Below, in pieces: positions 15,739 to 32,876 of a DNA stretch of 34,031 nucleotides (position 1 is its first letter; every line of letters begins with the position of its first letter). The position numbers and the translations under genes are program-made. The notes below the pieces were generated by a model. The model did not search any database and was not told the origin of the DNA. It was given only the letters and a program-made list of their open reading frames with translations. The stretch spans positions 1 through 34,031 of the IMG/VR virus record IMGVR_UViG_3300034116_001151. The stretch is one strand, 5' to 3'. The DNA is from a virus. Its lineage: Duplodnaviria > Caudoviricetes.

Positions 15739-16398
15739 ATGTCTTATTTAAGTAGTACATCAGTCGTAGTAGACGCCATCCTTACAAAAAAGGGCCGAGA
15801 GTTATTGGCCAGAAACGATGGTTCTTTCAGAATTACACAATTTTCTTTGTCAGATGACGAGGTAGATTATACCCTATACAACCCAAACCACCCTTCTGGA
15901 TCTGCTTTCTACGGTGAAGCCATAGAAAATATGCCAGTTCTTCAGGCTTTCCCTGACGATACCGAAATCATGAAGTATAAATTGGTAACTCTTCCTAGAG
16001 GTACAGCTAAGTTACCAGTGTTAAACGTTGGTTATAACAATATTAGTCTTCGTCAAGGAGCTTCTATTTCTATTACTCCTCAAACATTGAATTACTTGGG
16101 AGCTAATAGTACTTACGAGCAATCAGGATACGTTGTTACTATCGGAGACGTTAGAACAACAAGCAACTTTGTTGGAGTTGGAATTAACACCGCAGAGGTT
16201 GCTTCTTTAAACGCTACTACTACAATCGGTACAACGGTAAGTAAAACAGTTATTGGTACAACAATCAATATAACAGCCACATCGGTTAACACTTTATTCG
16301 GCGGAAATTCTCAATTACAAACAACATTGATAGTAACAGGCCGTGACTCAGGCGCAAGAATTAGTGTTCCAGTAACAATCATTAAAACAAATTTATAA
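15739..16398 (+). CDS. baseplate/tail-collar-like structural protein
   Basis: DAILTKKGRELLA...FRITQFSLSD resembles the N-terminus of tail-fibre attachment (P2 gpH N-terminal/DUF3751-like) domains, with a beta-rich C-terminus. Confidence 0.55.
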   Translation: MSYLSSTSVVVDAILTKKGRELLARNDGSFRITQFSLSDDEVDYTLYNPNHPSGSAFYGEAIENMPVLQAFPDDTEIMKYKLVTLPRGTAKLPVLNVGYNNISLRQGASISITPQTLNYLGANSTYEQSGYVVTIGDVRTTSNFVGVGINTAEVASLNATTTIGTTVSKTVIGTTINITATSVNTLFGGNSQLQTTLIVTGRDSGARISVPVTIIKTNL

Positions 16399-16408
16399 TA
16401 GTTAACAT

Positions 16409-17446
16409 ATGTCTTTTACACCAATTGCCTCATCAGATTTTGTAGTATCTTCGGATTCTGTAACGGCTCCAGCTTGGAGTACGAATGCTCAGACTCTGAC
16501 CTCCTTTTTTACTGCATCGGCTAACTTAACAAGCAGCTATTATTTGGATGTATATAATACTACTTATAATGCGTCTAACGCAGCTGTTCAATTCTCAGTT
16601 GCTTACGGTCACATATACGGTTCAGGTTCAGCACCATTAAATACTTTAGTGCCTCAAAATACTCCAAGTAGAATTACTTTTGGTCAATATAGAAACCTAA
16701 TATACGGAGACGCTACTGCTAACGTAAATTTTGGGACTGGCAATACTTCTTCTTTAGATCTTATTGCAATTCCTATTGATAGAAATAGATACAAAGGCAA
16801 TTTATTTCCTGGTACTTTTAACTTGAGTTTGAAATACGGATCATACGCTCAAACTTTATTCTTAACAAACAACTACAACGACGTATCTACTGTAACCTAT
16901 CTAGATTGCGGTAGAGCTTACAATATTATTTCTGGTTCTAACGGCACTGCTGTAAATAGTCCGCTATTAACAGGAGCACCAGCAAAAGGATATACAGCTT
17001 CAGGATCTTACGGTCTTTTCTTACCAGATATTGGTTTGATCTTATTGAATCCTAAAGCTTTAAGTTTACCTACAGCTGGTGGTGGTTTGGCAATTCCTTT
17101 CACTACTTCAACAGCAGCTTCAAGCGGTTGGGTTAATCAAGATTTAATTTATCAAACAATTAATTCAGGAAGCTCTTTTACATTAAATTCAGAAGAAACA
17201 ATATCTTCGGATTATGTGTTTGTAAGAGTTAAGAACGCAGAATACAATTACACTTCGAATCCATCAATGATAGATGTTTCTGGTAGTTTTATATATCCTA
17301 ACTTTGTTAACAGTCCTCAGACTTATATGACAACAGTTGGTTTGTATAATACCAATAACGAACTTTTGGCTGTGGCAAAAATGTCTAAGCCACTTGTTAA
17401 GGACTTTACAAAGGAATCATTAGTTAGAGTAAAATTAGACTGGTAG
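16409..17446 (+). CDS. baseplate/tail-collar-like structural protein
   Basis: C-terminal TTVGLYNTNNELLAVAKMSKPLVK resembles the GL(Y/F)...L.AVA..P..K end of tail-fibre attachment domains. Clear paralog of 30400..30711. Confidence 0.6.
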   Translation: MSFTPIASSDFVVSSDSVTAPAWSTNAQTLTSFFTASANLTSSYYLDVYNTTYNASNAAVQFSVAYGHIYGSGSAPLNTLVPQNTPSRITFGQYRNLIYGDATANVNFGTGNTSSLDLIAIPIDRNRYKGNLFPGTFNLSLKYGSYAQTLFLTNNYNDVSTVTYLDCGRAYNIISGSNGTAVNSPLLTGAPAKGYTASGSYGLFLPDIGLILLNPKALSLPTAGGGLAIPFTTSTAASSGWVNQDLIYQTINSGSSFTLNSEETISSDYVFVRVKNAEYNYTSNPSMIDVSGSFIYPNFVNSPQTYMTTVGLYNTNNELLAVAKMSKPLVKDFTKESLVRVKLDW

Positions 17447-17452
17447 TAATAA

Positions 17453-20400
17453 ATGAGCAACGCAAAGAATATTTTTGATTCTAACGGAGCACCTACCCCA
17501 ATAAAAGTTAAATATTCGAATTCCTACGACAACACAACCGTAAACAATTCAGGTATTTCTGCTAAAAAAGGTTTAAATGGAGCAGTGAGTCCGTCCAGTG
17601 AAGCATCTTTATCGACGTTGCGCTATTGGTCTGTGAGACACCTTTACTATTCTAATTTCCTTACTGGATCTCTAAACTCAACCGGATCGGCTAACATAAA
17701 CTCTTTACAATCTACCGCGGCTTCTGGAAGTGGAGACGAAGACATTAGAATTTTTCCAACAGGATCTAATGAAAAGGTAAAAATTATTTCTATTCCTAGA
17801 ACTGTTGCTGGAGAAAACATTGCAAGAAAAAGTTTCCAATTGTTAGCAGCAGATGGAATTAGCTATAAATTGATAGACGATGGTAATGGAAATGTAGTAG
17901 ATGCTTTCAATGGCTACGTTCACGTTGGTAATATTATTTATCCTCAAGCTACCATAATAGTTACCAATTCTAATTACTACTGTGTAATGGATGGTGGACC
18001 AGACGTAACCAACAAGTATTATACTTTCGATATAAGTCAAAATCCCAAAACTTTTAATCCACTATCTGACGCTGTAGGGGATTGTGCTCCTATAAACAGT
18101 GGATCTTTATCTTTATACAGTTATTTCAATACTCCTTTTCCTAGCGTAAGTATTAATACCGTTAACGCAAATGTTACTTTAAGCGAAACTGATCTTAGGA
18201 CAAATCAGGTCGGAGTTTACAATTCCTTCTTCGACGTAAAATCTGTTGCTCCTTACTACGCTCCTTCTGATCCTGGTAAAATTCAACTTACTATCACTGA
18301 CTGTAAAATTAGAGGGGTATCTGCCACAAGTCTAGACATTACTCCTACTTACCAAACAGTTAATGTAAAAGCAACAGCCATTGGCGCTAGCACAGATTAC
18401 TTCAACGTGTATTACGACGTTACTAGCAGTGTTGGTAATCTAATTCCTGCAGTTGATATTAATGGAAATCAAGTATCTCCAATAATAGGGTCTCAACTAA
18501 CTAACGGAATTGGTTTAGATTTAAAGGTTACCATAGACGCAAACTATTTTTACTTTTACGATTTGGGAGGAGTATGTAATGCAGTAGCAACTCAAGTAAA
18601 TATTCCAGGAGTTTCTCCAACGCCTACTCAAACACCTACTAAGACTCCATCTAATACTCCAAGTGTTACTGCGACTCCAAGTACGACTCAAACTCCGTCT
18701 AATACTCCAAGTATAACCGCTTCTAGTACGCCTAGCGCAACGCCTTCAAATACTCCAAGCATTACTGCAACAGCAACTCCAAGTAATACAGCGTCTATTA
18801 CTCCTACTCAAACTCCAAGTAATACCGCAACCGCTAGTCAAACTCCTAGTATTACTGCCACACCTACACAGACCGCTTCAAATACTCCGAGTCAAACACC
18901 AAGTACTACTCAAACACCAAGTAATACGCCGAGTCAAACTGCTTCGAATACCCCAAGTATTACAGCTAGTCAAACGCCTACACAAACTCCATCTAATACG
19001 CCAAGTATTACAGCGACTCCTACTCAAACTCCAAGTAATACGCCGAGTAATACTGCAACGCCTACTCAAACTCCGTCTAATACGGCGAGTATTACCGCGA
19101 CGCCTAGTCAAACGCCTACTCAAACACCAAGCAATACTCCAAGCATTACTCAAACTCCAAGCAATACTCCAAGTATTACAGCTACGCAAACACCAAGCAA
19201 TACTCAAACTCCTAGTAAAACCCCGAGTAATACTGCAACGCCTAGTAAAACTCCAAGTAATACGCCAAGTACTACACAAACGCCAAGCAATACGCCTAGC
19301 GTAACTAGTACTCAAACGCCGAGTCAAACTCCAAGCTCTCCAGGTTTGGCTTTCTTTACAGATACTACTAGTGGTGGTAGTGGTAACGGTCAATACGTTG
19401 ATTTTACTAGCGCTTGTAGAAACGGAGTACCGAATACAAACAAGTACCTAAGACCTGGTTTATCTGCTCCTGCTATTTCTGAATACGTTTATAACGAACC
19501 AAGTTTAACAACTTTTTATAATGGTGGTACCAGCTATCACTTGATGTTTAGAGGAAGTACTTATTGGGCCGTTAAGATTGGAGCTGTTGGTCAAATTTTA
19601 GATGTAGTAGATTGTTCTACTGTGCCTTCTCAAACACCTACTCCAACAGTAACTCAAACGCCAAGTAATACTCCATCAATTACGCCTTCTACTATTATGT
19701 ACACAGTGAAGTACGCTCCGTTTACTTCTGGAGGTCTTGCTGGATGTAGCTCTGGTTCTACTGTATCTATTAGCTTTAATAGCGGAACTTTCTGTACTGC
19801 AACATTTATTAATGGTGCTGGATTAGCTGCTATACCTGCAGGAAACTATACATTCTCTTACGGAGGTCAATTCATAAACGTTACTTTAAATGGAACCACT
19901 ACCGGTGAAGTTTATAGCTTTGGATGTACTGTATGTCCTAGTCCTAGCGTTACGCCTACTATCACAGCGAGTCCGACCCCTACGACAGTAATTTACCCAG
20001 TTAGTTATGCGCCGTTTGCTTCTGGAGCCAGCGCAGCGTGCGTAGCTGGTAATACTCTTAACGTCGCTTTCAATACAGGTAATTTCTGTACAGCTACTTC
20101 AGTTACAGGCGCTGGATTGGCCGCTTTACCTGCAGGAAATTATTACTTCGCTAGCAATGGTAATACAATAAATGTTACATTAAACGGAACAACTACAGGT
20201 GTGATTTATAGTACTGGTTGTCAACTTTGTCCTAGTCCTACACCAACATCAACAGCAACGCCTCCGGCCACTCCTTCGAATACTGCGACTCCTCCAAATA
20301 CTCCGTCTTCTACTTCTCCTGGCGTATCATTTGGAAGATCTACTGATACTTACCTTACTACTTACTTGACTTGCCAAGGTATTCCGGCCTTAACCGTATA

Positions 20401-22027
20401 TCAACCGCCTGTTAATGGTACCGTACCTACTGTTGGAGCTCAATTATATACTAATTCTACGCTTACCACAACATGGACTCCGCTTACTACTTCAGGTTAT
20501 TACTATTTCTTTAGAAGTACTTTAGGATATGCTGTGACTGTTAACTCTTTTGGTGCTATCCTTTCAGTGATTGCTTGTGCTGATCTTCCTTCGCAAACGC
20601 CTTCGATGACTCCAACCAAGACACCAAGTAATACTGCTACTCCGCCTGTAACGCCTAGTCAGACCGCATCAGTTACTCCACCAGTAACACCTACTAAAAC
20701 GCCTTCTAATACTGTTAGTGGTACTCCTGCTGTGACTCCAAGTATTACTAGAACACCTAACAATACACCGAGCGTTAGTAATATTCCTCAAGGATTCGCT
20801 ATAGATTTAACAGGCTATACAAACGAAACAGATACTTGTAGAAATGGAGAACAATTCCCTCTTGATACTTATTACATGGCTCCATCATATACGGTTCCTA
20901 CAGTAGGTCAATTCGTATATAGCGATTATCAATTATATACTACGTACAATGGTAATTCTCAATACCACTTAATGAGAAGAAGTACCACTACTTGGGCTGT
21001 ATTGATTGCGTTCTCAGGTCAAATTCAAAGAGTAGTAGATTGTTCTACGATACCTTCTAACCCAGCTACGCCTTCTAAAACACCATCAAGTACTCCGCCT
21101 AGTACACCACCTAATACACCTGCTAGTACGCCACCTAATACACCATCGTCAACAACTCCTAGCATATCATTTGGAAAATCTACTAGCACTTACGCAACTA
21201 CTTACTTGGCTTGTGACGGCGGTACTATAACCGGGGTGATATATCAATCACCGGCTTTTGGAACAACTCCAACAGCAGGAGCTCAATTATATACTGATTC
21301 TGCGCTTACCGCAACTTGGACGCCACCATCAACATCAGGATTTTACTTATTCCAATACGGCGGTAGTACTAAATGGGCAGTAATAATGAGCGCTGGCGGC
21401 GTTGTTAATACCGTTACAAGTTGTGCTACTCTTCCTTCTCAAACTCCTACACCTAGCATAACTACACCAGCTTCTGGATTTGGATATATAGGAGGATACG
21501 GTAATGCTACTGATGCTTGTAGAGGTAGTGCGCCTACGGGAACTATGTACACATCTCCTGGTACTAATGTTATCATGGTAGGAACTCAATTCTATAATAA
21601 TTCTGCTTTAACTCAAACTTTCCCTGGTAACAACGTTTGGTATAAAGTAGTAAAAGGCGGTAGCACTTGGGCAGCTTATATTGATGCTAGCGGTATAGTT
21701 CAAAATTATACAGATTGTACGGCTATACCTTCTCAAACTCCTACGCCTCCAACAACTCCGTGTGCTACGCCTGCAGCGCTATACGATTACTATCTAATGA
21801 CTGAATATCAGTGTAGTGGATTAGCTTGTGCTACTACTGGACTAGAAGCAATATGTGCTTTCCCAGCTGGAACTGGCATAAATCCTAATAGATTTTATTT
21901 ACCTACTTCATTTCCTGATATAGCCTATAAATACATTACAGAAGCTGGCGCACAGACAGCTGTTATTATGGGTACAACAGCCTATGTTAATTGCGCAGCT
22001 GCATTAGGATGCGGAGCAGAAGTATAA
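17453..22027 (+). CDS. 1524-aa mucin-like virion appendage/adhesin: baseplate-type N-terminus, S/T/P stalk, repeated Cys-containing domains
   Basis: Lies at the end of the baseplate module with no signal peptide. About 243-aa S/T/P tract, five copies of one domain, two copies of another, joined by TPS linkers. Confidence 0.75.
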   Translation: MSNAKNIFDSNGAPTPIKVKYSNSYDNTTVNNSGISAKKGLNGAVSPSSEASLSTLRYWSVRHLYYSNFLTGSLNSTGSANINSLQSTAASGSGDEDIRIFPTGSNEKVKIISIPRTVAGENIARKSFQLLAADGISYKLIDDGNGNVVDAFNGYVHVGNIIYPQATIIVTNSNYYCVMDGGPDVTNKYYTFDISQNPKTFNPLSDAVGDCAPINSGSLSLYSYFNTPFPSVSINTVNANVTLSETDLRTNQVGVYNSFFDVKSVAPYYAPSDPGKIQLTITDCKIRGVSATSLDITPTYQTVNVKATAIGASTDYFNVYYDVTSSVGNLIPAVDINGNQVSPIIGSQLTNGIGLDLKVTIDANYFYFYDLGGVCNAVATQVNIPGVSPTPTQTPTKTPSNTPSVTATPSTTQTPSNTPSITASSTPSATPSNTPSITATATPSNTASITPTQTPSNTATASQTPSITATPTQTASNTPSQTPSTTQTPSNTPSQTASNTPSITASQTPTQTPSNTPSITATPTQTPSNTPSNTATPTQTPSNTASITATPSQTPTQTPSNTPSITQTPSNTPSITATQTPSNTQTPSKTPSNTATPSKTPSNTPSTTQTPSNTPSVTSTQTPSQTPSSPGLAFFTDTTSGGSGNGQYVDFTSACRNGVPNTNKYLRPGLSAPAISEYVYNEPSLTTFYNGGTSYHLMFRGSTYWAVKIGAVGQILDVVDCSTVPSQTPTPTVTQTPSNTPSITPSTIMYTVKYAPFTSGGLAGCSSGSTVSISFNSGTFCTATFINGAGLAAIPAGNYTFSYGGQFINVTLNGTTTGEVYSFGCTVCPSPSVTPTITASPTPTTVIYPVSYAPFASGASAACVAGNTLNVAFNTGNFCTATSVTGAGLAALPAGNYYFASNGNTINVTLNGTTTGVIYSTGCQLCPSPTPTSTATPPATPSNTATPPNTPSSTSPGVSFGRSTDTYLTTYLTCQGIPALTVYQPPVNGTVPTVGAQLYTNSTLTTTWTPLTTSGYYYFFRSTLGYAVTVNSFGAILSVIACADLPSQTPSMTPTKTPSNTATPPVTPSQTASVTPPVTPTKTPSNTVSGTPAVTPSITRTPNNTPSVSNIPQGFAIDLTGYTNETDTCRNGEQFPLDTYYMAPSYTVPTVGQFVYSDYQLYTTYNGNSQYHLMRRSTTTWAVLIAFSGQIQRVVDCSTIPSNPATPSKTPSSTPPSTPPNTPASTPPNTPSSTTPSISFGKSTSTYATTYLACDGGTITGVIYQSPAFGTTPTAGAQLYTDSALTATWTPPSTSGFYLFQYGGSTKWAVIMSAGGVVNTVTSCATLPSQTPTPSITTPASGFGYIGGYGNATDACRGSAPTGTMYTSPGTNVIMVGTQFYNNSALTQTFPGNNVWYKVVKGGSTWAAYIDASGIVQNYTDCTAIPSQTPTPPTTPCATPAALYDYYLMTEYQCSGLACATTGLEAICAFPAGTGINPNRFYLPTSFPDIAYKYITEAGAQTAVIMGTTAYVNCAAALGCGAEV
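18614..19342 (+). repeat. degenerate coding repeat for a strict (S/T)-X dipeptide tract (TPSN/TPTQ/TPSI units)
   Basis: Recurrent ACTCCAAGTAAT-like 12-mers with varied synonymous codons. Every odd residue of the tract is Ser or Thr. Confidence 0.95.
19343..21724 (+). repeat. five dispersed copies of an about 85-93-aa two-Cys domain (about 19343-19621, 20321-20584, 20792-21049, 21161-21430, 21473-21724)
   Basis: Shared pattern F...(A/T)C...P(T/A)xG.x(V/L/F)Y....L......(W/Y)A(V/A)....G.(I/V)....C followed by PSQTP or PSNP. Confidence 0.85.
19697..20230 (+). repeat. two copies of an 80-aa four-Cys domain (about 19697-19936 and 19991-20230)
   Basis: YAPFTSG..AGC..FNSGTFCTAT..GAGLAAIPAGNY..INVTLNGTTTG..GCTVC versus YAPFASG..AAC..FNTGNFCTAT..GAGLAALPAGNY..INVTLNGTTTG..GCQLC. 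Confidence 0.9.
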
Positions 22028-22038
22028 ATTTAAAAAAT

Positions 22039-22206
22039 ATGAATAATTATCAGATAACTTTAACGTATACTCTTGAAGATAACCGAGTAATTAAGATTAA
22101 ATACATAACACCCGCAAACACTTACGAAGAAGCTGTATTACTAGTAAGGGAAAAGGGAGAAGAGCGACAAAGAATAATGGGAGGTCATATAGAATCTATA
22201 AGTTAA
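22039..22206 (+). CDS. small hypothetical protein (55 aa)
   Basis: ATG at 22039 (MNNYQITLTY) after an A-rich leader. Avoids the overlap implied by the 21991 start. Confidence 0.55.
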   Translation: MNNYQITLTYTLEDNRVIKIKYITPANTYEEAVLLVREKGEERQRIMGGHIESIS

Positions 22207-22259
22207 TATCACTATAAAGATAAAATAAAAAATATAGAATAAAAGTTTTAAATTAAGTT

Positions 22260-23516
22260 ATGGCCAAAATATTTGTTTCGATAGCTGCATATAGAGACCC
22301 GGAACTTTTACCCACTTTAAAGGACTTAATAGCCAACGCAAAAAATCCAAAAGATTTGGTGATTTGTATTGCTTGGCAACACGCAGAAGAGGACACTTGG
22401 GACACTCTAGAAAAATACAAAAAAGATAAACGATTTAAGATAATTGACATTCCTTACCAAGAAGCCAAAGGAGTTTGTCACGCTAGAAATTTAATACAAC
22501 AACAATACGACGGAGAAGATTATTACTTTCAACTAGATTCTCATCATAGATTTATTAAGGATTGGGATAAAGAGTTGAAAGAGATGATTAGCTATCTTCA
22601 GTGTAGAGGATACTATAAACCAATACTATCCACTTATTTGCCTTCGTACTTTCCAGAAAGCGATCCTAAAGGCAGGTTAGAAGAGGTTTGGAGTTTGAAT
22701 ATAGACAGATTCATGCCAGCCGGCGCCATATTTTTGAGACCTCAAGGATTGGACGGATGGAGACAAATGAAAGAACCAATATTCTCTAGATTTTTATCAG
22801 CTCACTTTATATTTACTATTGGTAAATTTGTAACAGAAGTTCCTTACGATCCTAATTTGTATTTTCACGGAGAAGAGAGTTCTTTGGCCGCAAGAGCTTA
22901 TACGCATGGATACGATTTATTTAATCCTCATAAAGTTTATGCTTGGCACGAATACACCAGAGAGGGAAAGAAAAAACATTGGGACGATAGTCAAGATTGG
23001 AAAGCCAAAGACGACGCATCTTACGCAAGATTTAGAAAGCTATTTGGTATGGACCCCGGTTGCACTCCTTGTCAAAGAAAGCTATTAGGACCTTACGGAT
23101 TTGGAATGGTAAGAACTTTAGAAGCCTTTGAAAGATATGCGGGTTTAAAATTTGCTACAAGACAAATACACAAACAAACGCTATTGCACAAGCCACCTCC
23201 TATACAAGGCGATTACGAAAGCGGATTATGTAATATGATAAAAGTTTGCATAGACGTTTACAAAGGATCTTTACCAGAAACTGATTACGATTTATTTGCA
23301 GTAGCTCTTATAGATGAAAATGGAAATGATTTACATAGAAAAGATTGCAATGAATTAGAAATACGTGGATTGTTAACTACTGACGCTAACGATAAGTTTG
23401 TGCATATTTGGAGAGAATACGAAGATATACGACAACCGCATTCTTGGAGAGTTTGGCCTCATTCTAAATCAAAAGGTTGGATGGAAAAAATAGAACAAGT
23501 TATATTATATGAATAA
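22260..23516 (+). CDS. GT60-like polypeptide alpha-GlcNAc transferase (Skp1-Hyp GlcNAc-T / GlcNAc family), paralog 1
   Basis: IFVSIAAYRDPEL, GVCHAR, FQLDSHHRF..WD (DxH metal motif), LSTYLP and FHGEE...AARAYTHGYD. Confidence 0.85.
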   Translation: MAKIFVSIAAYRDPELLPTLKDLIANAKNPKDLVICIAWQHAEEDTWDTLEKYKKDKRFKIIDIPYQEAKGVCHARNLIQQQYDGEDYYFQLDSHHRFIKDWDKELKEMISYLQCRGYYKPILSTYLPSYFPESDPKGRLEEVWSLNIDRFMPAGAIFLRPQGLDGWRQMKEPIFSRFLSAHFIFTIGKFVTEVPYDPNLYFHGEESSLAARAYTHGYDLFNPHKVYAWHEYTREGKKKHWDDSQDWKAKDDASYARFRKLFGMDPGCTPCQRKLLGPYGFGMVRTLEAFERYAGLKFATRQIHKQTLLHKPPPIQGDYESGLCNMIKVCIDVYKGSLPETDYDLFAVALIDENGNDLHRKDCNELEIRGLLTTDANDKFVHIWREYEDIRQPHSWRVWPHSKSKGWMEKIEQVILYE

Positions 23517-24783
23517 AAATAAAGAAACAATATTAATTCATCTGCCCTCTTATAGAGACCCAGAATTAATACCAACAATTAAGGACGCTTTAGCAAATGC
23601 TAAGTACCCAAAAAGAGTACACTTCGGTATCTGTAGACAATACTGTGAAACAGATGAGTTCGACAATCTTGATGAATACAGAGAAGATTCAAGATTTCAC
23701 ATAATGGATGTGCCTTACAAAGAAGCCGAAGGATTACCATGGGCAAGAGCTCAAATCAACGAGAAACTTTTAACTGATCAGGATTATATACTACAATTAG
23801 ATTCTCATCATCGATTCGAAAAGGATTGGGATGTTACCTTAATAGACATGCACAATGGACTAGAGAAGCAGGGATACAAACCTATTCTTGCTGGTTATTT
23901 ACCTCTGTACGATCCATACAACGATCCTCAAGGAAGAGCTGATGTACCATGGCAACAACAATTCGTTTGCTTCTATCCTCATGGTACCATATTCATCAGA
24001 CCAGCTTTGTTAGAAGGTTGGCAAGATATGACAGAACCAGCGATGTCCAGATTTTTATCAGGTCATTTCTGTTTTGCTAGATCAGAATGGGCTAGAGAAA
24101 TCAAACACGATCCAAACATTTACTTTAGCGGAGAGGAGATTAATCTTACCGTGCGCTCCTATACTCATGGTTACGATATGTTCCATCCTCATAGAATTGT
24201 TATTTGGCACTCAACAATGCGCGAAGAAAGAAGCGGGATTCTCAAATGGGACGACGATTCAAAGAACGGAATTGACTGGTCAAAAAAACAATCCGACTCA
24301 CGCAAAAGAATTAGAGTTTTATTGGGTTCAGAAGAAGATGCTACTATGGATTTAACTGGTTACGATATTGGTAAAGTTAGAACTGTTAGAGATTACGAGA
24401 AATATGCAGGTGTTGATTTTAAAAGAAGAGCTGTTCAACAATACACTTTGGACAACAAGTATCCACCAAATCCTTATATAGAGAACGACGAATTATGGGA
24501 ACAATCTTTTACTAGATCTTTTTATTATTTAGTAAATGTGAACAAGCATGACTTCTCTAGAAACGATTATAAGTTTGTATTAGTTGCATTCGATGATGAG
24601 AATGGAATTTCAATTAACAGTGAATTCGTAGACGATGGTAGAATACAACAATTTAACGAAGGCATAAATATACATTACGAAAAACATTTTTTAATTACCA
24701 AGAAGCCTACAAAAGTAGTGTATTGGGCATTTAGTGAAGCTGGAGGATGGGGAGAAAGGGTCGAAGCATTACTACAAGATTAA
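23509..24783 (+). CDS. GT60-like polypeptide alpha-GlcNAc transferase, paralog 2
   Basis: LPSYRDPEL, GLPWAR, LQLDSHHRF..WD and FSGEE...VRSYTHGYD. Colinear with paralog 1, including the extra C-terminal domain. Confidence 0.85.
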   Translation: MNKNKETILIHLPSYRDPELIPTIKDALANAKYPKRVHFGICRQYCETDEFDNLDEYREDSRFHIMDVPYKEAEGLPWARAQINEKLLTDQDYILQLDSHHRFEKDWDVTLIDMHNGLEKQGYKPILAGYLPLYDPYNDPQGRADVPWQQQFVCFYPHGTIFIRPALLEGWQDMTEPAMSRFLSGHFCFARSEWAREIKHDPNIYFSGEEINLTVRSYTHGYDMFHPHRIVIWHSTMREERSGILKWDDDSKNGIDWSKKQSDSRKRIRVLLGSEEDATMDLTGYDIGKVRTVRDYEKYAGVDFKRRAVQQYTLDNKYPPNPYIENDELWEQSFTRSFYYLVNVNKHDFSRNDYKFVLVAFDDENGISINSEFVDDGRIQQFNEGINIHYEKHFLITKKPTKVVYWAFSEAGGWGERVEALLQD

Positions 24784-24802
24784 CAATTAAACAAAAAAAC
24801 AT

Positions 24803-25399
24803 ATGAAAAAAGTATTTTTAGATTTTGGATTTAGATACGGAGAAGGATTCGAAATAATAAACGATTATCTTCAAATGGATTCTACTTGGGAAATGATAGC
24901 GTACGAACCCAACACTGAAATAGCTGTAGAAGAAGCCATAGAAAAATTGAATGCGCCTTGTAAAGTTGAGTATAGAAAGCAAGCAGTTTGGGTATACAAT
25001 GGAACTATAGAGTTTTTGGTAGAAGACAAAAGAGAGCGGTATAAAGGTCATCAAATACCAGAAACCGAAGAAGGCTTGTTTGAAGGAGAAGCATCGCACA
25101 TATCAATATTGTCTTCTAGAAATTCTAATATGTGCACAAAGAAAGTAGAAGTGCCTTGCGTTGATATAAAAACTATTTTAGAAGAACACAGAGGAAAAGA
25201 GATTTATATAAAAGCAGATATCGAAGGTGCAGAATTTGAGATAGTAAAAAGAATCATTAGTGAAAATCTATGTTCTGATATTAAGTTAATGTGGATTGAA
25301 TGGCATCCTGACGATTTAGGTCCTGACTATGAAAGTTTAAGGGTTGAATTAATAGACACTCTAAGAAAAAATGGAGTACGAAACGAACTTTGGCACTAA
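24803..25399 (+). CDS. FkbM-family SAM-dependent methyltransferase
   Basis: FLDFG..YG, AYEPN, AVW and IKADIEGAEF...IEWH. Confidence 0.85.
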   Translation: MKKVFLDFGFRYGEGFEIINDYLQMDSTWEMIAYEPNTEIAVEEAIEKLNAPCKVEYRKQAVWVYNGTIEFLVEDKRERYKGHQIPETEEGLFEGEASHISILSSRNSNMCTKKVEVPCVDIKTILEEHRGKEIYIKADIEGAEFEIVKRIISENLCSDIKLMWIEWHPDDLGPDYESLRVELIDTLRKNGVRNELWH

Positions 25400-26346
25400 T
25401 GAAAAAAATTAAATTAGAATGTTGGTGGACAGATTCAGGCAATTTAACTCGTAGATTTTTAGAACAGTTTGTGCCTGATATTGATAGAGAAAATTATGAA
25501 TTTGTTTACGGAGAAGAATACGATTATCTTATTGTTTTTGGTAGAACTAATTGGGAAAATATAAAAGTTTCTAAAGAAAAAGTTTTATTCTTTTCTCAAG
25601 AACCTTTGTGGTCTCATAACGAAACAAAAGAGATTCATCAATACTCTGATAAAATATTTGTAGCCGATAAAAGACTGTATCCAGAAAGTGACTCTTACAA
25701 AGAAGAATTATTTCCCATGTTTTACGGAGCAAAGGGTGAATACGATTCAAGACCAGAATTTGATTGGTCCAAAAAAATATTTGAATCAGATCTTTCTCAA
25801 ACTAAAACGAAGAGCGTTAGTATGGTTGTTACCAAAAACTATAATTCTCACGTTGATCAATTTAATAGACCGGAATTCTTCGATATCATATACAAAAAAA
25901 GAACTGATCTAGGCATTGCGCTTTCAGAAGTATTGCCTCAAGTGGATATTTGGGGAGTGTATTGGGAAAATAATGATATCAATCTACACGGAGAAGCGTG
26001 GAACAAAAGAGTGGCTTTGAACGATCATAAGTTCTCAATTGCCTGCGAAAACACAGTACAAAAAAATTACATAAGCGAAAAGTTTTGGGACTGCATTTTA
26101 ACTGAAACAGTACCCATATATTTGGGATGCAACAATATTTATGAACTGGTACCTCAAGACAGTTTCATCTACTTAAATCCTGATAAGGACAATATGGATC
26201 AAATAATCTCTACAATAAAAGAAGTCGAAGCTAACGCAGACGCTTTGTACGAAATGTACTTACCAAAAATAAAGGCACTAAAACAGGAATTTATTCACGG
26301 AACAAAATATAATCTTTGGAATAAGATTAAAAGCGAAATAGCATGA
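25399..26346 (+). CDS. GT10 alpha-1,3/4-fucosyltransferase-like glycosyltransferase
   Basis: KFSIACENTVQKNYISEKFWDCILTETVPIYLG is the GT10 signature. ATG at 25399 overlaps the previous TAA (TAATG). Confidence 0.85.
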   Translation: MKKIKLECWWTDSGNLTRRFLEQFVPDIDRENYEFVYGEEYDYLIVFGRTNWENIKVSKEKVLFFSQEPLWSHNETKEIHQYSDKIFVADKRLYPESDSYKEELFPMFYGAKGEYDSRPEFDWSKKIFESDLSQTKTKSVSMVVTKNYNSHVDQFNRPEFFDIIYKKRTDLGIALSEVLPQVDIWGVYWENNDINLHGEAWNKRVALNDHKFSIACENTVQKNYISEKFWDCILTETVPIYLGCNNIYELVPQDSFIYLNPDKDNMDQIISTIKEVEANADALYEMYLPKIKALKQEFIHGTKYNLWNKIKSEIA

Positions 26347-27239
26347 AAATAAAGTTTATAACTTGCATATACGATAATCTTTTTGGTACAGATTTAGGGG
26401 GCAGATTTAATAGAGGAGGTCATTATAAGCACTCTTTAAAAGCAATAATGAACATTACAATCGCTGATTTTCTATTGTATACTAGCGAAGAAGAAATAGA
26501 GGATCTTAGGAACTTCTTTTATGCGGAGTGTGGATTTACAGAAGATAGATTGCAGATAAAGACCTACGATATCAGGAACACTCCTTACAAAGAAAAATTT
26601 GAACTGTATAAAAACTTAGAAGAAGTAAAGCAATCAGATAGGTGCCCAGAAATACAATATGCTAAGTTAACTTGGTTGGAAGATTTTAACGAACCAGATT
26701 ACGATTATCTGTTTTGGATAGACGCGGGACTCTCTTCAAACATTCTTTTCCCCGACAGATATTTTCCCGAGGATAAAGGCTATTATCCGAGATATTTTGG
26801 ATCATCCGCTTATACAGATATGCTAGTTCAAAATTTAGTAAAATATGTAGGAGATAAAGTACTCTTAATAAGAAAAGATAACACAAACAATTTTTGGTCT
26901 GGTACGGTTCCTGGAAAATATTACACCGAGCATCGCTCTGAAAAACACATCATAGGTGGTTTATTTGGAGGAAAAATAGAAAGCACAAAGGAATTTGCTA
27001 GACTTTTTAGAGAGTCGGCTAATACTGTTTTAGACGGAGAAAAAAGAATCTTCTACGAAGAAAATATAATGTCTTTAGTTTACTATAACAATCAAGAGCT
27101 ATTTGCTACTTTGGATTTTGATATTTGGTGGCACGAAGACGAAAGAATTAACTATCCTGATTTTGATATTATAGAACACACAACCGTTAATAAATCTTTT
27201 TATAAGATATTTGTAGAATTAGAAAATATGTATGCATGA
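26343..27239 (+). CDS. HtrL/YibB (WlaTC)-like putative glycosyltransferase
   Basis: AKLTWL...YLFWIDAG, IIGGLFGG and YEENIMS. Paralogous to the N-terminal half of 28688..30388. Confidence 0.7.
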   Translation: MKIKFITCIYDNLFGTDLGGRFNRGGHYKHSLKAIMNITIADFLLYTSEEEIEDLRNFFYAECGFTEDRLQIKTYDIRNTPYKEKFELYKNLEEVKQSDRCPEIQYAKLTWLEDFNEPDYDYLFWIDAGLSSNILFPDRYFPEDKGYYPRYFGSSAYTDMLVQNLVKYVGDKVLLIRKDNTNNFWSGTVPGKYYTEHRSEKHIIGGLFGGKIESTKEFARLFRESANTVLDGEKRIFYEENIMSLVYYNNQELFATLDFDIWWHEDERINYPDFDIIEHTTVNKSFYKIFVELENMYA

Positions 27240-28687
27240 AAGTAGCTTTGATCATGAAGTTTTGGCACGATGGACAAGAGAATTCTTCTCGTGTTATAAA
27301 CGTAAATTATACTTGGGAAAAATTAAAACACTTAACTTCTTATTTAAGAGATAACGGTGTAGATTGTGATTGTGAACTATTTGATTTTTCTCCAGATAAA
27401 ATTATTCAAGAGAGTACTCATATTCCTTTCGGCTTAGGAGAATATAGATTGGCAGAAAAACAAAATATTATTTTAAAAAGAAAACATGACTCTGATTACT
27501 TTTTTGCTTTCGATTGTGATGCGTTCTTTCACGAAAATGATTACGCTTCAATACTAAATATAATAAGAGAACTTCAACCTAATTGGGCGTATTCTTTTGA
27601 TATGGCAAAATTAGACGGAGGTTCTACTGAAAAGGTTTTATCAAATAATTACAACACAGAAGAATTAGAATTTAATTATGCTTTTACTGGAGATAAAGTT
27701 CATGGACCTTTTGGGGTTGGACATAGAGGCGGTTTAGGAGGCGTTTATTTAGTAGACACAAAAATGTTAACACAGAACGGAGGATTCAACGAGAATTATA
27801 TTGGATGGGGAGGAGAAGACAACGATGCTTTGGATAAAATAACTCAAACTGGTGTTGTTAATCCTATTAAATCTTTTGCTCCTTATCATTTACAACACTT
27901 TACGGATTGGGGAAGTAAAGCCTATACAGTTCGGTTTCCTAGCTACACAATAGGAATTACTACGTTTTCAAAAAGAATAGGATACCTTAGCGCTTTAATT
28001 CCACAAATAAGAAAGCACAATGGCAATAAGATATTACTTTGTATTAATGGAGAAAAAGACGGAGTTTTTAGCAACGATTATAGAAATCAAGTTTTAAGAC
28101 TTTGCACAGAATACGACAACGTATATCCTATATTCTTTATCGAAACTAGAGGACTCGCAAAGATGTGGAATAGTATCATCTCTCATAGCGACGAAGAAAA
28201 TATATTAATGCTAGGTGACGATATAGAAATACATTCTGATAATATTTTTACAGATGTACAAGAGCACATAAAGGGAGATTACTATAGTGGACTAACAAGA
28301 ATAAATGGATCTTACGCTCACTTCTTAATCAATAAAAAAGTGATGAACGAATTGGGATATTTCGACGAAAGGCTATTGGGATTTGGTGAAGAGGACGGAG
28401 ATATTACTTGGAGATTTATAGACAAATATAAAAAGCCAATTGGCGAAATGCAAACAGGAGGAGTAGTGAATATAGTATCTGATATACGCCATGATTATAT
28501 AAAACCTGGAGTCGGTAAATATTCTTTGTATAATAGGAAATTTATGTTTGAAGAAAAATATGTGTGTGGACCAGAATACGAAGGCAATCCAGTTGGAATG
28601 TTTGGTCAGCCTTGTAAAATGGTCATAGAAACACCTAGCTCATTACCTTACGAAGGATACTTTTTAGAAAATAAAATAAAGTTATAG
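27236..28687 (+). CDS. two-domain GT-A (GT2/GT7-like) glycosyltransferase
   Basis: Domain 1: FAFDCD and GGFNENYIGWGGEDND. Domain 2: IGITTF, GLAKMWN, MLGDD and GYFDERLLGFGEEDGD. Confidence 0.8.
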   Translation: MKVALIMKFWHDGQENSSRVINVNYTWEKLKHLTSYLRDNGVDCDCELFDFSPDKIIQESTHIPFGLGEYRLAEKQNIILKRKHDSDYFFAFDCDAFFHENDYASILNIIRELQPNWAYSFDMAKLDGGSTEKVLSNNYNTEELEFNYAFTGDKVHGPFGVGHRGGLGGVYLVDTKMLTQNGGFNENYIGWGGEDNDALDKITQTGVVNPIKSFAPYHLQHFTDWGSKAYTVRFPSYTIGITTFSKRIGYLSALIPQIRKHNGNKILLCINGEKDGVFSNDYRNQVLRLCTEYDNVYPIFFIETRGLAKMWNSIISHSDEENILMLGDDIEIHSDNIFTDVQEHIKGDYYSGLTRINGSYAHFLINKKVMNELGYFDERLLGFGEEDGDITWRFIDKYKKPIGEMQTGGVVNIVSDIRHDYIKPGVGKYSLYNRKFMFEEKYVCGPEYEGNPVGMFGQPCKMVIETPSSLPYEGYFLENKIKL

Positions 28688-30388
28688 ATGGAACCAAAAT
28701 TAGATTTAACGATAGTCACAGGACTTTGGAATATAAATAGACAAGGGCGACCTTTCGAACATTACATAGAGCACTTCAAGAAGTTCTTGGACATGCCCTA
28801 TAATTTATTCATATACATTCCACAAGAGTACGAATACTTAGTGTGGGAAAAAAGATCAAGAGACAATACGTTTGTTAAGATCTACGAATTAGACGATGTA
28901 AAAAGATTGTACGATCCATTTTGGGATAAAACACAAAAGATAAGAACGAATCCTGAGTGGTTGAATTTAACCGGTGAAGGCGGTTGGTTGCCTGGCAGTC
29001 CTCAAGCAAGTTTAGAATGGTACAATCCAATAGTAATGTCCAAAATGTTTATGCTACACGACGCTAGTATTTGGGATCCATTCGCTACTGAACATTTTAT
29101 TTGGTTGGACGCAGGAATATCCAACACTGTTTACGAAAATTACTTCTCTCAAAACAGAGTGTTAGACAAGATAATTCCTTACTTAAGTTCTTTCTTATTT
29201 TTATCTTATCCGTATCAAGCTACAGACGAAATACACGGTTTTAAATTCAATAGAATAAATGCTTACTGCGAAGATACAGCTAAGTACGTTTGTAGAGGTG
29301 GACTATTTGGAGGTACAAAGAAAGCCATTCACGAAGCTAACGGACTTTATTATGCGTTATTACAAAGATCCTTAGACGAAGGTTTGATGGGCACAGAAGA
29401 GAGTTTATTTTTAATAATGGCTTATCAGTATCCAGAAATTTATAGGAGATACGCTTTAGACGAAAATGGCTTAATCATAAAATTCATCCAAGCCTTAGAT
29501 CAAGGTACAGTAGAATTAGAACCTGTACCAGAAAAAAGAGTCGGTCTTATTCAAAAAAGTTTAAACTTAGACGGCATAAAAACATCTCTTTATGTTTTAA
29601 CTTTTAACTTTCCTCATCAACTACAAACACTAATAGACTCTTACGAAAAACATCCTAACTTTTTAGATAAGACTAGAAAAATTCTATTAGATAATTCTAC
29701 AGACGAAGAGTCTAGAATAAAGAATAGAGAGATCGCAGACAAGTACGGATTCGAACATATTATTACAGGAAAGAATGGAGGAATTTGTGGTGGTAGACAA
29801 TTAGCCGCAGAACATTTTCACGAATCCGATAGTGACTTCTATATATTCTTAGAAGACGATATGTGCATACACGATCCTTCTACTAAAGGCGAATTCTGTA
29901 GAAATGGTTTTAGATTTTATATAGACAACTTATATAACAAGATACACAAGATAATGTTGAAAGAGGATTTTGACTTTCTTAAATTATCTTATACAGAAGT
30001 ATACATGGACAATAACATTCAAGTGTCTTGGTACAATGTTCCACAACACGTAAGATCAGAAGTCTGGCCGGATTACGATAAATTGCCAGAACACGGTCTA
30101 GATCCAAGGGCTCCAAGAACACGGTTCGATAAAATAGAAGTACTAGAGGATTTGAGTTATATAACAGGAGAAATATATTATGCTAACTGGCCCATGATTG
30201 TTAGCAAAAAAGGAAATCAAAAAATGTTTATTGATGTAAAATGGAATCACCCTTACGAACAAACTTGGATGAGCTATATGTTCCAAGAGTCCATGAAAGG
30301 AAATCTAAATCCAGGTATTTTATTAGCCAGCCCGGTTAATCACAACAGGATTGCTCACTATAAGCCTGAGGAAAGACGTGAGAACTAA
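28688..30388 (+). CDS. fusion of an HtrL/YibB-like domain and a GT2-like GT-A domain
   Basis: N-half: TIVTGLWNI, SKMFML, FIWLDAG, GGLFGG, GTEESL. C-half: LTFN, LLDNS, NGGICGGR, YIFLEDD. Confidence 0.75.
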   Translation: MEPKLDLTIVTGLWNINRQGRPFEHYIEHFKKFLDMPYNLFIYIPQEYEYLVWEKRSRDNTFVKIYELDDVKRLYDPFWDKTQKIRTNPEWLNLTGEGGWLPGSPQASLEWYNPIVMSKMFMLHDASIWDPFATEHFIWLDAGISNTVYENYFSQNRVLDKIIPYLSSFLFLSYPYQATDEIHGFKFNRINAYCEDTAKYVCRGGLFGGTKKAIHEANGLYYALLQRSLDEGLMGTEESLFLIMAYQYPEIYRRYALDENGLIIKFIQALDQGTVELEPVPEKRVGLIQKSLNLDGIKTSLYVLTFNFPHQLQTLIDSYEKHPNFLDKTRKILLDNSTDEESRIKNREIADKYGFEHIITGKNGGICGGRQLAAEHFHESDSDFYIFLEDDMCIHDPSTKGEFCRNGFRFYIDNLYNKIHKIMLKEDFDFLKLSYTEVYMDNNIQVSWYNVPQHVRSEVWPDYDKLPEHGLDPRAPRTRFDKIEVLEDLSYITGEIYYANWPMIVSKKGNQKMFIDVKWNHPYEQTWMSYMFQESMKGNLNPGILLASPVNHNRIAHYKPEERREN

Positions 30389-30399: not shown

Positions 30400-30711
30400 A
30401 TGCCAACACCATCAGCAGCAGTAATACCATTTAACTTCACGGCCTCGTCTGAGTATACCATATACCAAAAAGAGGTTAGATGCCACGTGAACGAAAACGA
30501 GTTTAACTACACCCTAAACAACAGCGCTATTAAAGACGGCACCACAGGATCTTACATAGACGTAGCAACCGGTTCTGACTTTAGACCCTACGCTACCACC
30601 GTTGGTCTTTACAACGATGTTAATCAGCTCATATTGGTAGGTAAATTATCAACGCCCTATCCAATTCCTTCTAACACAGACATTACGTTTGTTGTTCGTT
30701 GGGATAGCTAA
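30400..30711 (+). CDS. stand-alone C-terminal domain of a baseplate/tail-collar-like protein
   Basis: FTASSEYTI...VNENEFNYTLN...PYATTVGLYNDVNQLILVGKLSTP aligns with the last ~95 aa of 16409..17446. Confidence 0.75.
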   Translation: MPTPSAAVIPFNFTASSEYTIYQKEVRCHVNENEFNYTLNNSAIKDGTTGSYIDVATGSDFRPYATTVGLYNDVNQLILVGKLSTPYPIPSNTDITFVVRWDS

Positions 30712-31257: not shown

Positions 31258-31296
31258 AAAATAAAAGGGAGCCCAAATGAGCTCCCTTTCTTATTT
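31258..31296. terminator. bidirectional intrinsic terminator between convergent operons
   Basis: Stem AAAGGGAGC (31264-31272) / GCTCCCTTT (31281-31289) with an 8-nt loop, A-rich left flank and T-rich right flank. Confidence 0.85.
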
Positions 31297-31311: not shown

Positions 31312-32316
31312 CTAATACATTAAACCTCTGTGTTCAATTCCATTCATAAACTCTTCTTGATCTGTCAGAGCCAGACTGAATGTGTCCGGAAAGATCCAAG
31401 TGTAAGGAATGTTCTTGGTCGGTTTCTTTTCACCATGAGAGATTGCGATGTGCTTCCAAAAGAAACAGGTCTTGTCTTCAATGTTCAGATACTTCTGTTC
31501 AGTCATTGGGTTTAACGGGTGATTCACTAGCAGATCCATCTGATACAACCATTGCTCTGCCTGTTTGTTCTCAGGTGTGAATACTCCAGCTTCGTTAATA
31601 GTATACTTAACTTTACCGTTTAGGTTCTGACCACCGAATATCTGGTGTAATCCATCGAAGTGACCAGTACCACCGAATAGAATAGATTCAGGATCTACCA
31701 AGTGTGGATAACTCATAGCGATGTATCTTGCAGTGTTCTTACATGGATACAAAGGACTTCTAAAGTTTTGATGCTCTTTAAAGTACTTCTCAAGAATCTT
31801 TGCAAACTCCATCATTGTGTACTTTCCACGCTTACCATCTTCAACGTCCTGTAAAACGTAAGCCAATTCTTGACCAGCAATTCTAGGTCCGTGTAACAAC
31901 CAATGTTTAACGTCTGTGCCCTTTGGATAATAGATTTGAAATAGATCGTTTCTTGCGTGACGATTGTTGACGAAGTGATCCTTAGTAGAATCAATGCCTT
32001 CTTTTGCCAATTTCATGAATGTGCCCCAATGTTCGTTACTAAAACTAAACACTAAAGTATAAAACATTCTTAGTTCGTTGTCTGTAACATTGTCCCTCAT
32101 GTAGTAACAGTAAGGATGTTCGTGCCAATGCAAGCGATGTGAAAAGATTTGATACTCTGATTTTAACAAAGAGTCTTTTCTGTTATCGAATTTTTGGCAG
32201 AACTCAAAGAACTTTTCGATACGCTGATCTAACGACCAATCTCGCATCCAAGAGTCCTTTGGTTTTTTGCCTTTAAATTCTACTTCGCAAGTGTTTGGAA
32301 ATAAAATTTCACTCAT
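31312..32316 (-). CDS. putative amino acid:DNA transferase / aGPT-Pplase-like DNA-modification protein, paralog 2
   Basis: Helical protein with FFEFCQKFDNR, IFSHRL, a Gly-rich LFGGTGHFDGL loop and NIEDKTCFFWK, recalling the GPGA..GL and E..LCE..K motifs of that family. Confidence 0.5.
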   Translation of the reverse strand: MSEILFPNTCEVEFKGKKPKDSWMRDWSLDQRIEKFFEFCQKFDNRKDSLLKSEYQIFSHRLHWHEHPYCYYMRDNVTDNELRMFYTLVFSFSNEHWGTFMKLAKEGIDSTKDHFVNNRHARNDLFQIYYPKGTDVKHWLLHGPRIAGQELAYVLQDVEDGKRGKYTMMEFAKILEKYFKEHQNFRSPLYPCKNTARYIAMSYPHLVDPESILFGGTGHFDGLHQIFGGQNLNGKVKYTINEAGVFTPENKQAEQWLYQMDLLVNHPLNPMTEQKYLNIEDKTCFFWKHIAISHGEKKPTKNIPYTWIFPDTFSLALTDQEEFMNGIEHRGLMY

Positions 32317-32876
32317 TATTTTGCTATTTTTTTTGTAGGTTTTTTCTTAACATAAGTAGAAGTCTTCTTTGCATAATCTGATACTGCATACTTTAAAATG
32401 ATGTCTTCTTCTGTTTTATTCAATTTGTATATCTTTCTAACGTAGCGTTCAGATCTTGGAATAATCAAAGAATTCTGAGTGCTGTTCGGTAAAGGTCTAA
32501 TTGAATTTGGTTCTGTCTTTAGAATGTTAAGATCAACTTCTAGTAACCAACCATCGTATTCGTTTTCCCATACCATAGGAATACTTAAGATATAAAGTTT
32601 CTCGCACTTTAAAGCGTGTTCTACTTGTTTACCTGAATCGGCATCTAATGCCCAACAATTGTGTTGATGATAAGGCGAAATCGTTTTTAATTGAGTAATG
32701 GTTGGAGTTTGTCTATCAAAAAATACTAAGTGATCGTTGTATCCGTATGGATCTGGATTGATGTGGACTTTGTAGCCCATATCTTGCATAACGTTGTTAA
32801 ATATTTTTTCTCCTGTTAATCCTTGGATGTGGATGTTTTTTGTCTGCTTTGCAGATTTGTTTGTTGTGTAAGCCAT
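32316..32876 (-). CDS. PD-(D/E)xK restriction-endonuclease-fold protein
   Basis: QGLTGEKIF helix, then YGYNDHLV and TQLKT (G..GE ... D ... Q-x-K). TAATG-coupled on both sides. Confidence 0.5.
   Translation of the reverse strand: MAYTTNKSAKQTKNIHIQGLTGEKIFNNVMQDMGYKVHINPDPYGYNDHLVFFDRQTPTITQLKTISPYHQHNCWALDADSGKQVEHALKCEKLYILSIPMVWENEYDGWLLEVDLNILKTEPNSIRPLPNSTQNSLIIPRSERYVRKIYKLNKTEEDIILKYAVSDYAKKTSTYVKKKPTKKIAK

Follow-up and report, generated by a model that had tools for sequence, protein, structure and literature searches.

The 34,031-nt viral record IMGVR_UViG_3300034116_001151 (Duplodnaviria; Caudoviricetes), hereafter the window, represents an approximately 21% complete genome of an uncultured phage and carries, between positions 17,453 and 30,388, a gene for a protein with a long Thr/Ser/Pro-rich stalk and a cassette of seven genes headed by two GT60-family glycosyltransferases. 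As GT60 enzymes and such stalks occur together across the related phages and bacteria examined, this phage likely sugar-coats its own fibre, and we consider it probable that the cassette carries out a cytoplasmic mucin-type O-glycosylation in which the core is fixed and the caps can be exchanged. Few tailed phages are known to glycosylate their virions; in the present case, sequence suffices to name the starting enzyme as well as its presumed acceptor.

A Thr/Ser/Pro-rich stalk beside two GT60 enzymes

An earlier note on this DNA had described a stalk of approximately 243 residues with further TPS linkers, one tiny open reading frame (ORF), and then seven genes on the same strand. This arrangement was borne out, with all ORFs recovered at their positions on the + strand and a single 55-residue ORF preceding the seven genes. 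The stalk spans residues 388-630 of the 17453-22027 product and contains 80 Thr, 47 Ser, 46 Pro, and 3 charged residues (173/243, or 71%, Thr/Ser/Pro; 127 Ser/Thr in all; Pro 19%), and the best Ser/Thr/Pro fraction over 60 residues is 0.73 for this protein versus 0.43 for the runner-up among the window's proteins. The stalk is coded by mixed synonymous codons and is therefore not a simple DNA tandem repeat. C-terminal to it, TPS linkers join seven small modules that contain Cys and are of two types (internal BLAST E values down to 5e-32), and the protein lacks the kind of hydrophobic segment by which proteins are usually anchored in membranes.

Both GT60 assignments made in the earlier note were upheld by Pfam, as the products of 22260 and 23509 matched PF11397 with E values of 3.7e-71 (240.9 bits) and 1.4e-54 (186.4 bits), respectively, far above the cut-off of 21. 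A structural model was generated for the 22260 product using AlphaFold2 (pLDDT 84.7), and the 23509 product was placed through its 40% identity to this copy. A sequence search of solved structures with the 22260 product gave no match, nor did one with the family of gene 16409. Comparison of the model using Foldseek returned polypeptide N-acetylgalactosamine (GalNAc) transferases (ppGalNAc-Ts) as the best matches (E 1.6e-10), while VIA-align placed mouse GalNAc-T1 with a mucin peptide at the top (Z 21.3, rmsd 3.5, 276 aligned residues), followed by Toxoplasma GalNAc-T3 (Z 19.8) and the next fold at 18.2. The fold thus points to polypeptide N-acetylhexosamine (HexNAc) transferases, being closest to that of the GT27 ppGalNAc-Ts, which initiate mucin chains. 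Residues D93, S94, H95, G204, E205, E206, and H230 are invariant in 17 of 17 aligned GT60 rows; we take the DxH to be the metal motif and presume that the further His and the acidic GEE motif have the same roles as in ppGalNAc-Ts. Neither GT60 copy contains a membrane-like hydrophobic stretch (maximum KD19 1.17 and 0.86).

The GT60 family comprises protist polypeptide α-N-acetylglucosamine (GlcNAc) transferases that start mucin-type chains (PMC8724618). The protist enzymes of Dictyostelium and Trypanosoma cruzi (for activity see PMC8724618 and PMC3188802) share PF11397 with the phage enzymes, and they and the animal GT27 ppGalNAc-Ts are alike with them in GT-A fold, DxH motif, and a Thr/Ser/Pro-rich acceptor, which is presumed in the phage. 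Unlike these enzymes, those of the phage are soluble, unanchored, and encoded beside the presumed acceptor, and they carry a C-terminal β domain of approximately 95 residues. As the Golgi mucin-type pathway employs membrane-anchored enzymes in a secretory compartment, the phage system resembles it in working but is not a member of it.

Two other acceptors were weighed. In a Skp1-type route, the prolines of the stalk would be hydroxylated and a GT60 would then place GlcNAc on hydroxyproline, which is what the cytoplasmic Dictyostelium enzyme does on Skp1 (PMC8724618). Although the Pro content of the stalk is compatible with such a route, PF13640, representing one prolyl-hydroxylase-type family, was found in 0 of 3 complete GT60 genomes (five records searched; the control matched in 2 of 14), and we rate this route the least probable of all alternatives. 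Alternatively, the cassette could glycosylate modified bases of the phage DNA. The two genes downstream of the cassette (31312-32316 and 32876-33979) are, in our unconfirmed estimation, reminiscent of thymine-hypermodification enzymes, and were counted toward this explanation; both, however, also occur in relatives whose slot is free of a cassette (L293, L294, L343, and L345). DNA-glycosylating phage GT-A enzymes are known, but they cluster with TET-like or ThyS genes, and GT60 is not named in the main text of the paper describing them (bioRxiv 10.1101/2023.12.21.572611). A TET/JBP search of five genomes gave no match, with the control unmatched as well. With the 22260 fold nearest to peptide-acting enzymes, we judge DNA to be a highly improbable target.

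The two GT60 copies may not be equivalent. In loci L036-L039 both are fused into one protein of approximately 870 residues, a hint that the separate copies work together. Stalks at two-copy loci have a Ser/(Ser+Thr) ratio of at least 0.30 in 28 of 28 cases, versus 4 of 26 at one-copy loci (two rows with short flanks dropped), although this correlation reflects 1-2 independent changes (p 1). The copies could possibly divide Thr and Ser between them, an idea that depends on one or two evolutionary events. Locus L302 has no more than a (TP)n protein with a single GT60, suggesting that these form the minimal unit. By our estimate, approximately 1,700 stored viral stretches carry the GT60 pattern, and the trait therefore seems to be widespread in uncultured viruses.

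GT60 enzymes and Thr-Pro stalks occur together

To count Thr-Pro (TP) stalks, we used the DNA pattern for TP[ST]xTP[ST], for which a reversed-pattern control gave at most 3 matches. The whole-record set comprised 28 related records, 18 from IMG/VR that are at least 90% complete and 10 that are annotated, which we chose for length from our own searches. All 13 records with GT60 contain 10-288 TP matches, and none of the 15 records without GT60 has more than one. In record G004 the GT60 gene and the listed TP repeats are separated by at least some 40 kb, and adjacency alone therefore does not explain the co-occurrence. Eight fragments outside this count likewise carry GT60 and the motifs.

The association extends to bacteria. 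At bacterial GT60 loci, three or more TP motifs were found within 3 kb in 23 of 78 cases and beyond 5 kb in 1 of 78 (416 kb of near and 323 kb of far DNA scanned). The neighbouring TP-linker proteins are encoded in Bacteroidota, Gemmatimonadota, Verrucomicrobiota, and Sphingomonas, and an HtrL-type partner is present in 27 of the 78 loci (L446-L523; six not parsed), some of which also have a carbamoyltransferase. Judged from gene content, these loci possibly represent an undescribed protein glycosylation system.

At the locus level, 80 loci including that of this phage (L045) were fetched by a flanking gene, blind to the enzymes. Seven have a TP stalk with GT60, five a poly-Thr stalk with a different enzyme (see below), and 37 a closed slot with neither; three have TP without a slot enzyme, three the other enzyme without a stalk, and 25 are incomplete. 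In a 103-row tree built from the flanking gene (from 128 unique rows, with 25 unresolved ones dropped and L197 set to poly-Thr by hand), GT60 and TP are concordant in 7 of 8 independent pairs and opposite in none (p 0.016). A broader TP rule, devised after the exceptions were known, gave 25/25 versus 3/78 and 7.9 of 8 pairs (p 0.008). As adjacent genes can hitchhike, we give the whole-record and bacterial tests more weight than the tree. Thus, the linkage of GT60 to Ser/Thr-rich stalks in relatives, which the earlier note had proposed as a check, held at the locus, genome, and tree levels and in bacteria.

Several observations weigh against this interpretation. The Fisher value of 2.7e-8 for the 28 records overstates the evidence, as the records were picked by us and are related. 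TP motifs without a GT60 match occur in fragments G027 and G034 (26 motifs; 29% and 43% complete), G028, and G029, and G017 (66% complete) has GT60 and no stalk. A larger flanking-gene tree (173 of 221 rows) gave a weaker result, with 5.6 of 7 pairs concordant, none opposite, and a median p of 0.031 (range 0.031-0.125). No stalk is present in the fetched DNA of 51 of 106 viral GT60 loci. Of the 31 TP rows in which the slot is resolved, 6 lack GT60, and in lineages L107, L073/L076/L361, L391/L397, L297, and L330 the slot holds a stalk without GT60; complete genomes sought for such lineages were not found, the most complete being 43%.

A different explanation is that stalk and enzymes merely travel together as an inserted block, with the cassette modifying host surface glycans. 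As the stalk and GT60 adjoin in 38 of 106 viral loci, block movement is possible, and the fragments with TP stalks and no GT60 are in keeping with it. Nevertheless, the co-occurrence holds at a distance, in G004 and in the phage XacN1, as well as in bacteria, and the type of stalk shifts with the enzyme family, making mere co-travel very unlikely.

XacN1, a Xanthomonas jumbo phage, is the cultured parallel. Its ORF334 and ORF330 are homologues of GT60 (40%) and of the last cassette protein, HtrL-GT2 (38%), and lie in one cluster with the HtrL-like ORF332, a gene set it shares with this phage. Unlike this phage, XacN1 encodes a single GT60, and genes for TP proteins are dispersed through its genome, with 15 TP-stalk ORFs in the 270 kb scanned of 385 kb. 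Xoo-sp13 is another cultured phage that carries GT60. At least two Schiff-stained virion glycoproteins were reported for XacN1 and phage enzymes were proposed as their makers (PMC5852040), while the same glycoprotein stain kit gave negative results for ten further phages (PMC12894461). The part of PMC5852040 cited here names neither the enzyme families, the acceptors, nor the TP repeats; that the stained bands are not identified there and that XacN1 has a second glycosyltransferase also count against our interpretation.

We also noted related genes of 177-214 residues with a D-V/I-D motif (L073:12914-13447, L076:12899-13432, L377:8186-8821, and L380:14873-15517), which lie 3' of genes for short stalks, TP or poly-Thr, where the slot has neither of the two enzymes. 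We presume that the motif resembles that of nucleotidyltransferases; Pfam gave no match for the L073 gene, and PHROG none for the L073 or L377 genes. From their position, these genes could possibly encode a third modifier.

A poly-Thr counterpart in sister phages

In sister phages, the same slot is occupied by a poly-Thr stalk and then a 318-residue PHROG 4417 protein (e.g. L049:3099-4055) with no GT60 match. At 80 PHROG 4417 loci, a poly-Thr gene lies directly upstream in 47 and anywhere in 57, and GT60 is present in none. On the flanking-gene tree, PHROG 4417 and poly-Thr are concordant in 8.6-9.3 of 10-11 independent pairs (p 0.004). The family is found in 77 cultured phage records and is encoded downstream of poly-Thr structural genes in cultured Enterococcus, Lactobacillus, Clostridium, and Chryseobacterium phages. 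In 5 of 5 cultured phages examined (L270-L274) the gene is 3' of a Thr-run gene, three of which are annotated as tail proteins; in Enterococcus phage phiFL1A, for example, it follows the major tail protein gene. That the type of repeat changes with the enzyme family would be expected if the enzyme reads the repeat, and the PHROG 4417 protein and its poly-Thr partner are, as predicted from gene order, probably a second O-glycosylation kit.

The identity of PHROG 4417 as a glycosyltransferase is only a lead. A label as HPAT (GT95/GT96, PF23452) found no support in direct tests, with 0 of 21 members and 0 of 5 records matching (the control was unmatched in the latter too); in the Atlas, the neighbour cluster of PHROG 4417 has PF23452 on 10% of its members (score 0.96). 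In Enterococcus phage nattely (L274:4700-5010), the Thr-run frame lies behind the stop of a 400-residue gene that comes after the head protease gene, in a different frame and with no annotated gene, and may be a frameshift extension. One 142-kb fragment (G032) contains both GT60 and the PHROG 4417 enzyme.

The slot is a split gene in the baseplate region

The closest cultured relative found is Flavobacterium phage immuto (vB_FspM_immuto; Immutovirus), which shares the gene order around the slot, with flanking genes that are 70% and 46% identical; a Bacteroidota host is therefore likely. Immuto gp105 (357 residues) aligns with the first ~170-180 residues of the 17453 product (E 1e-8 and 2e-7), and its back half is 43% identical to the ORF 30400 product, so that the two parts of a split gp105 enclose the stalk and cassette, an arrangement that the earlier note had overlooked. 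In immuto, by contrast, gp105 is unsplit and followed by genes annotated as tail fibre and tail spikes, and the genome contains 0 GT60 matches, 0 TP motifs, and no stalk. Genes matching baseplate wedge families lie 5' of the slot in the same run as the cassette (Table 1). A search for promoters did not exceed chance (44 versus 56.5), and an RNA run search yielded a single run (9% of words), which plays no part in the interpretation. In locus L133 (2139-6161), the TP stalk is inserted in a homologue of gene 11650, gp105 is unsplit, and the cassette is 3' of the GIY-YIG gene; the pairing is kept and the layout differs.

Table 1. Features of the window in and around the stalk and glycosyltransferase cassette.
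Feature	Position	Strand	Remark
Conserved gene of baseplate/tail module	15739..16398	+	70% identity to gp107 of Flavobacterium phage immuto; fixes lineage
Conserved gene immediately 5' of variable slot	16409..17446	+	46% to immuto gp106; paralogue of split gene; tree marker
Stalk protein, 1524 aa	17453..22027	+	Front corresponds to immuto gp105 front half; likely acceptor
ORF of 55 aa	22039..22206	+	Without family
GT60-family glycosyltransferase a, soluble	22260..23516	+	D93-S-H95, F-H-G-E-E 202-206, H230; likely initiating enzyme
GT60-family glycosyltransferase b	23509..24783	+	40% to copy a; F-S-G-E-E variant
FkbM-family methyltransferase	24803..25399	+	Variable middle block
GT10-like (fucosyltransferase family) protein	25390..26346	+	Variable middle block
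HtrL-like protein, single domain	26343..27239	+	27% to XacN1 ORF332; variable middle block
GT7C/GT2-like protein, two domains	27236..28687	+	Variable middle block
HtrL + GT2-like tandem GT-A protein	28688..30388	+	Conserved partner of GT60
Protein of 103 aa, immuto gp105 back half	30400..30711	+	Closes slot
Terminator-like hairpin	31263..31290	both	3' of GIY-YIG gene, at end of + strand gene run
Two genes downstream of cassette	31312-32316, 32876-33979	-	93-99% in close relatives; no library match

As the tail fibre and tail spike genes of immuto come after gp105 at the same slot, we call the stalk protein a probable tail fibre on the basis of gene position and homology. It is unlikely that the protein is glycosylated without being a virion fibre, for instance as an intracellular protein, a released decoy, or one that carries sugar only for folding or protease protection. 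This explanation draws on the fact that, in the libraries searched, neither a named structural family nor a solved structure matched the stalk protein or its neighbours, which weakens the fibre assignment, and on the report that electron microscopy of XacN1 did not reveal tail fibres (PMC5852040). An Atlas search with the modules gave only unnamed viral clusters, and homologues are mostly unnamed. Against this explanation, the protein has the conserved front half of gp105, follows the baseplate wedge genes, and is encoded at the place of the immuto fibre and spike genes.

GT60 and a conserved partner flank variable middle genes

Profile matches confirmed the FkbM (24803 product; E 1.6e-9) and GT10-like (25390 product; PF00852, E 8.6e-15, 55.3 bits, cut-off 23.9) assignments of the earlier note. 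Its two HtrL-like domains fared unequally, with that of the 28688 product firm (E 4.3e-12, passing PF09612) and that of the 26343 product, which has no Pfam match, weak and seen by profile comparison only (hhalign against the 28688 family's HtrL domain; probability 87%, E 3.8e-6). Two of its three GT2/GT7-like domains are likewise firm, both in the 27236 product (GT7C, E 5.6e-10; GT2-like, E 2.1e-11), and the C-terminal GT2 of 28688 is weak (E 0.01-0.03). Against TIGR02192 (YibB/HtrL equivalog), the 28688 product scored 36.4 bits versus a cut-off of 264.9, and that of 26343 did not match. The statement that sugar-nucleotide synthesis genes are lacking stood, with none among the 31 window proteins scanned.

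An HtrL-GT2 protein is encoded in 83 of 105 viral GT60 loci and in 45 of the 51 with enough flank, and in 72 of 106 loci GT60 and HtrL-GT2 form, in order, the two ends. Between them are at least 44 middle arrangements (single linkage), which differ even in close kin and in relatives include genes for a carbamoyltransferase, GT34, GT11, GT25, and GDP-mannose dehydratase or UDP-galactopyranose mutase. The GT10-like gene of this phage recurs in 2 of 105 GT60 loci and the FkbM-like gene in 1 of 105; the predicted glycan possibly bears fucose, with GDP-fucose as the putative donor, and methyl groups, as suggested by the family names of these two genes rarely shared with relatives. A model of the HtrL-GT2 protein (pLDDT 74, pTM 0.57) matched the tandem GT-A proteins mimivirus R699, LARGE1, and chondroitin polymerase at TM scores of only 0.2-0.27, and a co-polymerase role is therefore a lead and not a finding.

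These middle genes give rise to another explanation, in which GT60, perhaps with HtrL-GT2, glycosylates the stalk and the middle genes modify the lipopolysaccharide (LPS) or capsule of the host, for example to block rival phages. The HtrL, GT10, GT11, GT25, and FkbM families are typical of LPS and lipooligosaccharide loci too, with HtrL proteins found in the latter (PMC4172580), and phage glycosyltransferase clusters have been interpreted as host-surface modifiers (PMC7824862). That LPS-type families are swapped freely in the middle block tells against a purely virion-directed cassette and allows a host-surface role. However, the seven genes abut in one run within a split structural gene, none of their products has a membrane-like hydrophobic stretch (maximum KD19 1.17), and the poly-Thr cassette carries middle genes of its own at the same position. 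On balance, we find a divided role of this kind unlikely.

Relation to known virion glycosylation systems

Freeman et al. (2023) reportedly dealt with virion glycosylation in the mycobacteriophages Che8 and Rita. Like known phage virion glycosylation systems, that of this phage includes phage-encoded glycosyltransferases, such as are described for Che8 and Rita together with glycans on virion proteins (PMC11256854, PMC12619734); here, the virion glycan is predicted, with the stained bands of XacN1 as an indirect indication only. In the mycobacteriophages, capsid and tail-tube subunits reportedly carry the glycans, whereas the presumed acceptor in this phage is a 243-residue stalk that contains 127 Ser/Thr and is encoded in a fibre slot, and the chains would be started by GT60. 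Moraphages have four core glycosyltransferase groups (PMC12619734). No mycobacteriophage was among the four phage records matching the 22260 product. Searches of open-access literature turned up no account of a phage cassette that pairs GT60 with a stalk. Glycosylated virions and the chemistry of GT60 enzymes are both established, and their union in a swappable fibre-slot cassette is what we did not find in print. Freeman et al. (2023) and the moraphage work (PMC12619734) may bear on this novelty.

Proposed pathway and its meaning

In the pathway that we favour, late in infection the soluble GT60s would add a first HexNAc to Thr/Ser of the TPS stalk and linkers, with a peptide hydroxyl as acceptor and host UDP-HexNAc, probably UDP-GlcNAc from what is known of the family, as donor. 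The five other enzymes would then extend and cap the chains. Conservation suggests that GT60 and HtrL-GT2 constitute the fixed core, with HtrL-GT2 likely extending it, and that the middle genes (FkbM, GT10, HtrL, and GT7/GT2) swap the outer sugars. Judging from position, the stalk protein may be docked on the baseplate by the front half of gp105, with the ORF 30400 product completing this domain in trans. The earlier note had listed stiffening of the stalk, shielding of the virion, and bait for a glycan-foraging host as conceivable roles. Dense O-glycans stiffen such chains, as in mucins, and the most likely role of the dense core sugars would be to stiffen and protect the stalk and so hold the small modules off the baseplate. 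The fast turnover of the cap genes suggests that the outer sugars are recognized by something, and the variable cap would most likely be recognized by a host or a predator.

A broader scheme, which we put forward as doubtful, is that phages have at least two interchangeable O-glycosylation kits, each matched to its own repeat (GT60 with Thr-Pro, and an unnamed family with poly-Thr), and a hypervariable sugar cap that serves as host-recognition ligand, acting as bait for Bacteroidota glycan uptake and replacing the tail spikes in the slot.

If the favoured pathway is correct, the glycoprotein bands of XacN1 would be directly testable in a cultured phage, the stalks would be the first acceptor class that we could find for viral and bacterial GT60 enzymes, and the system would supply small soluble enzymes for making mucin-type O-glycans in a bacterial cytoplasm.

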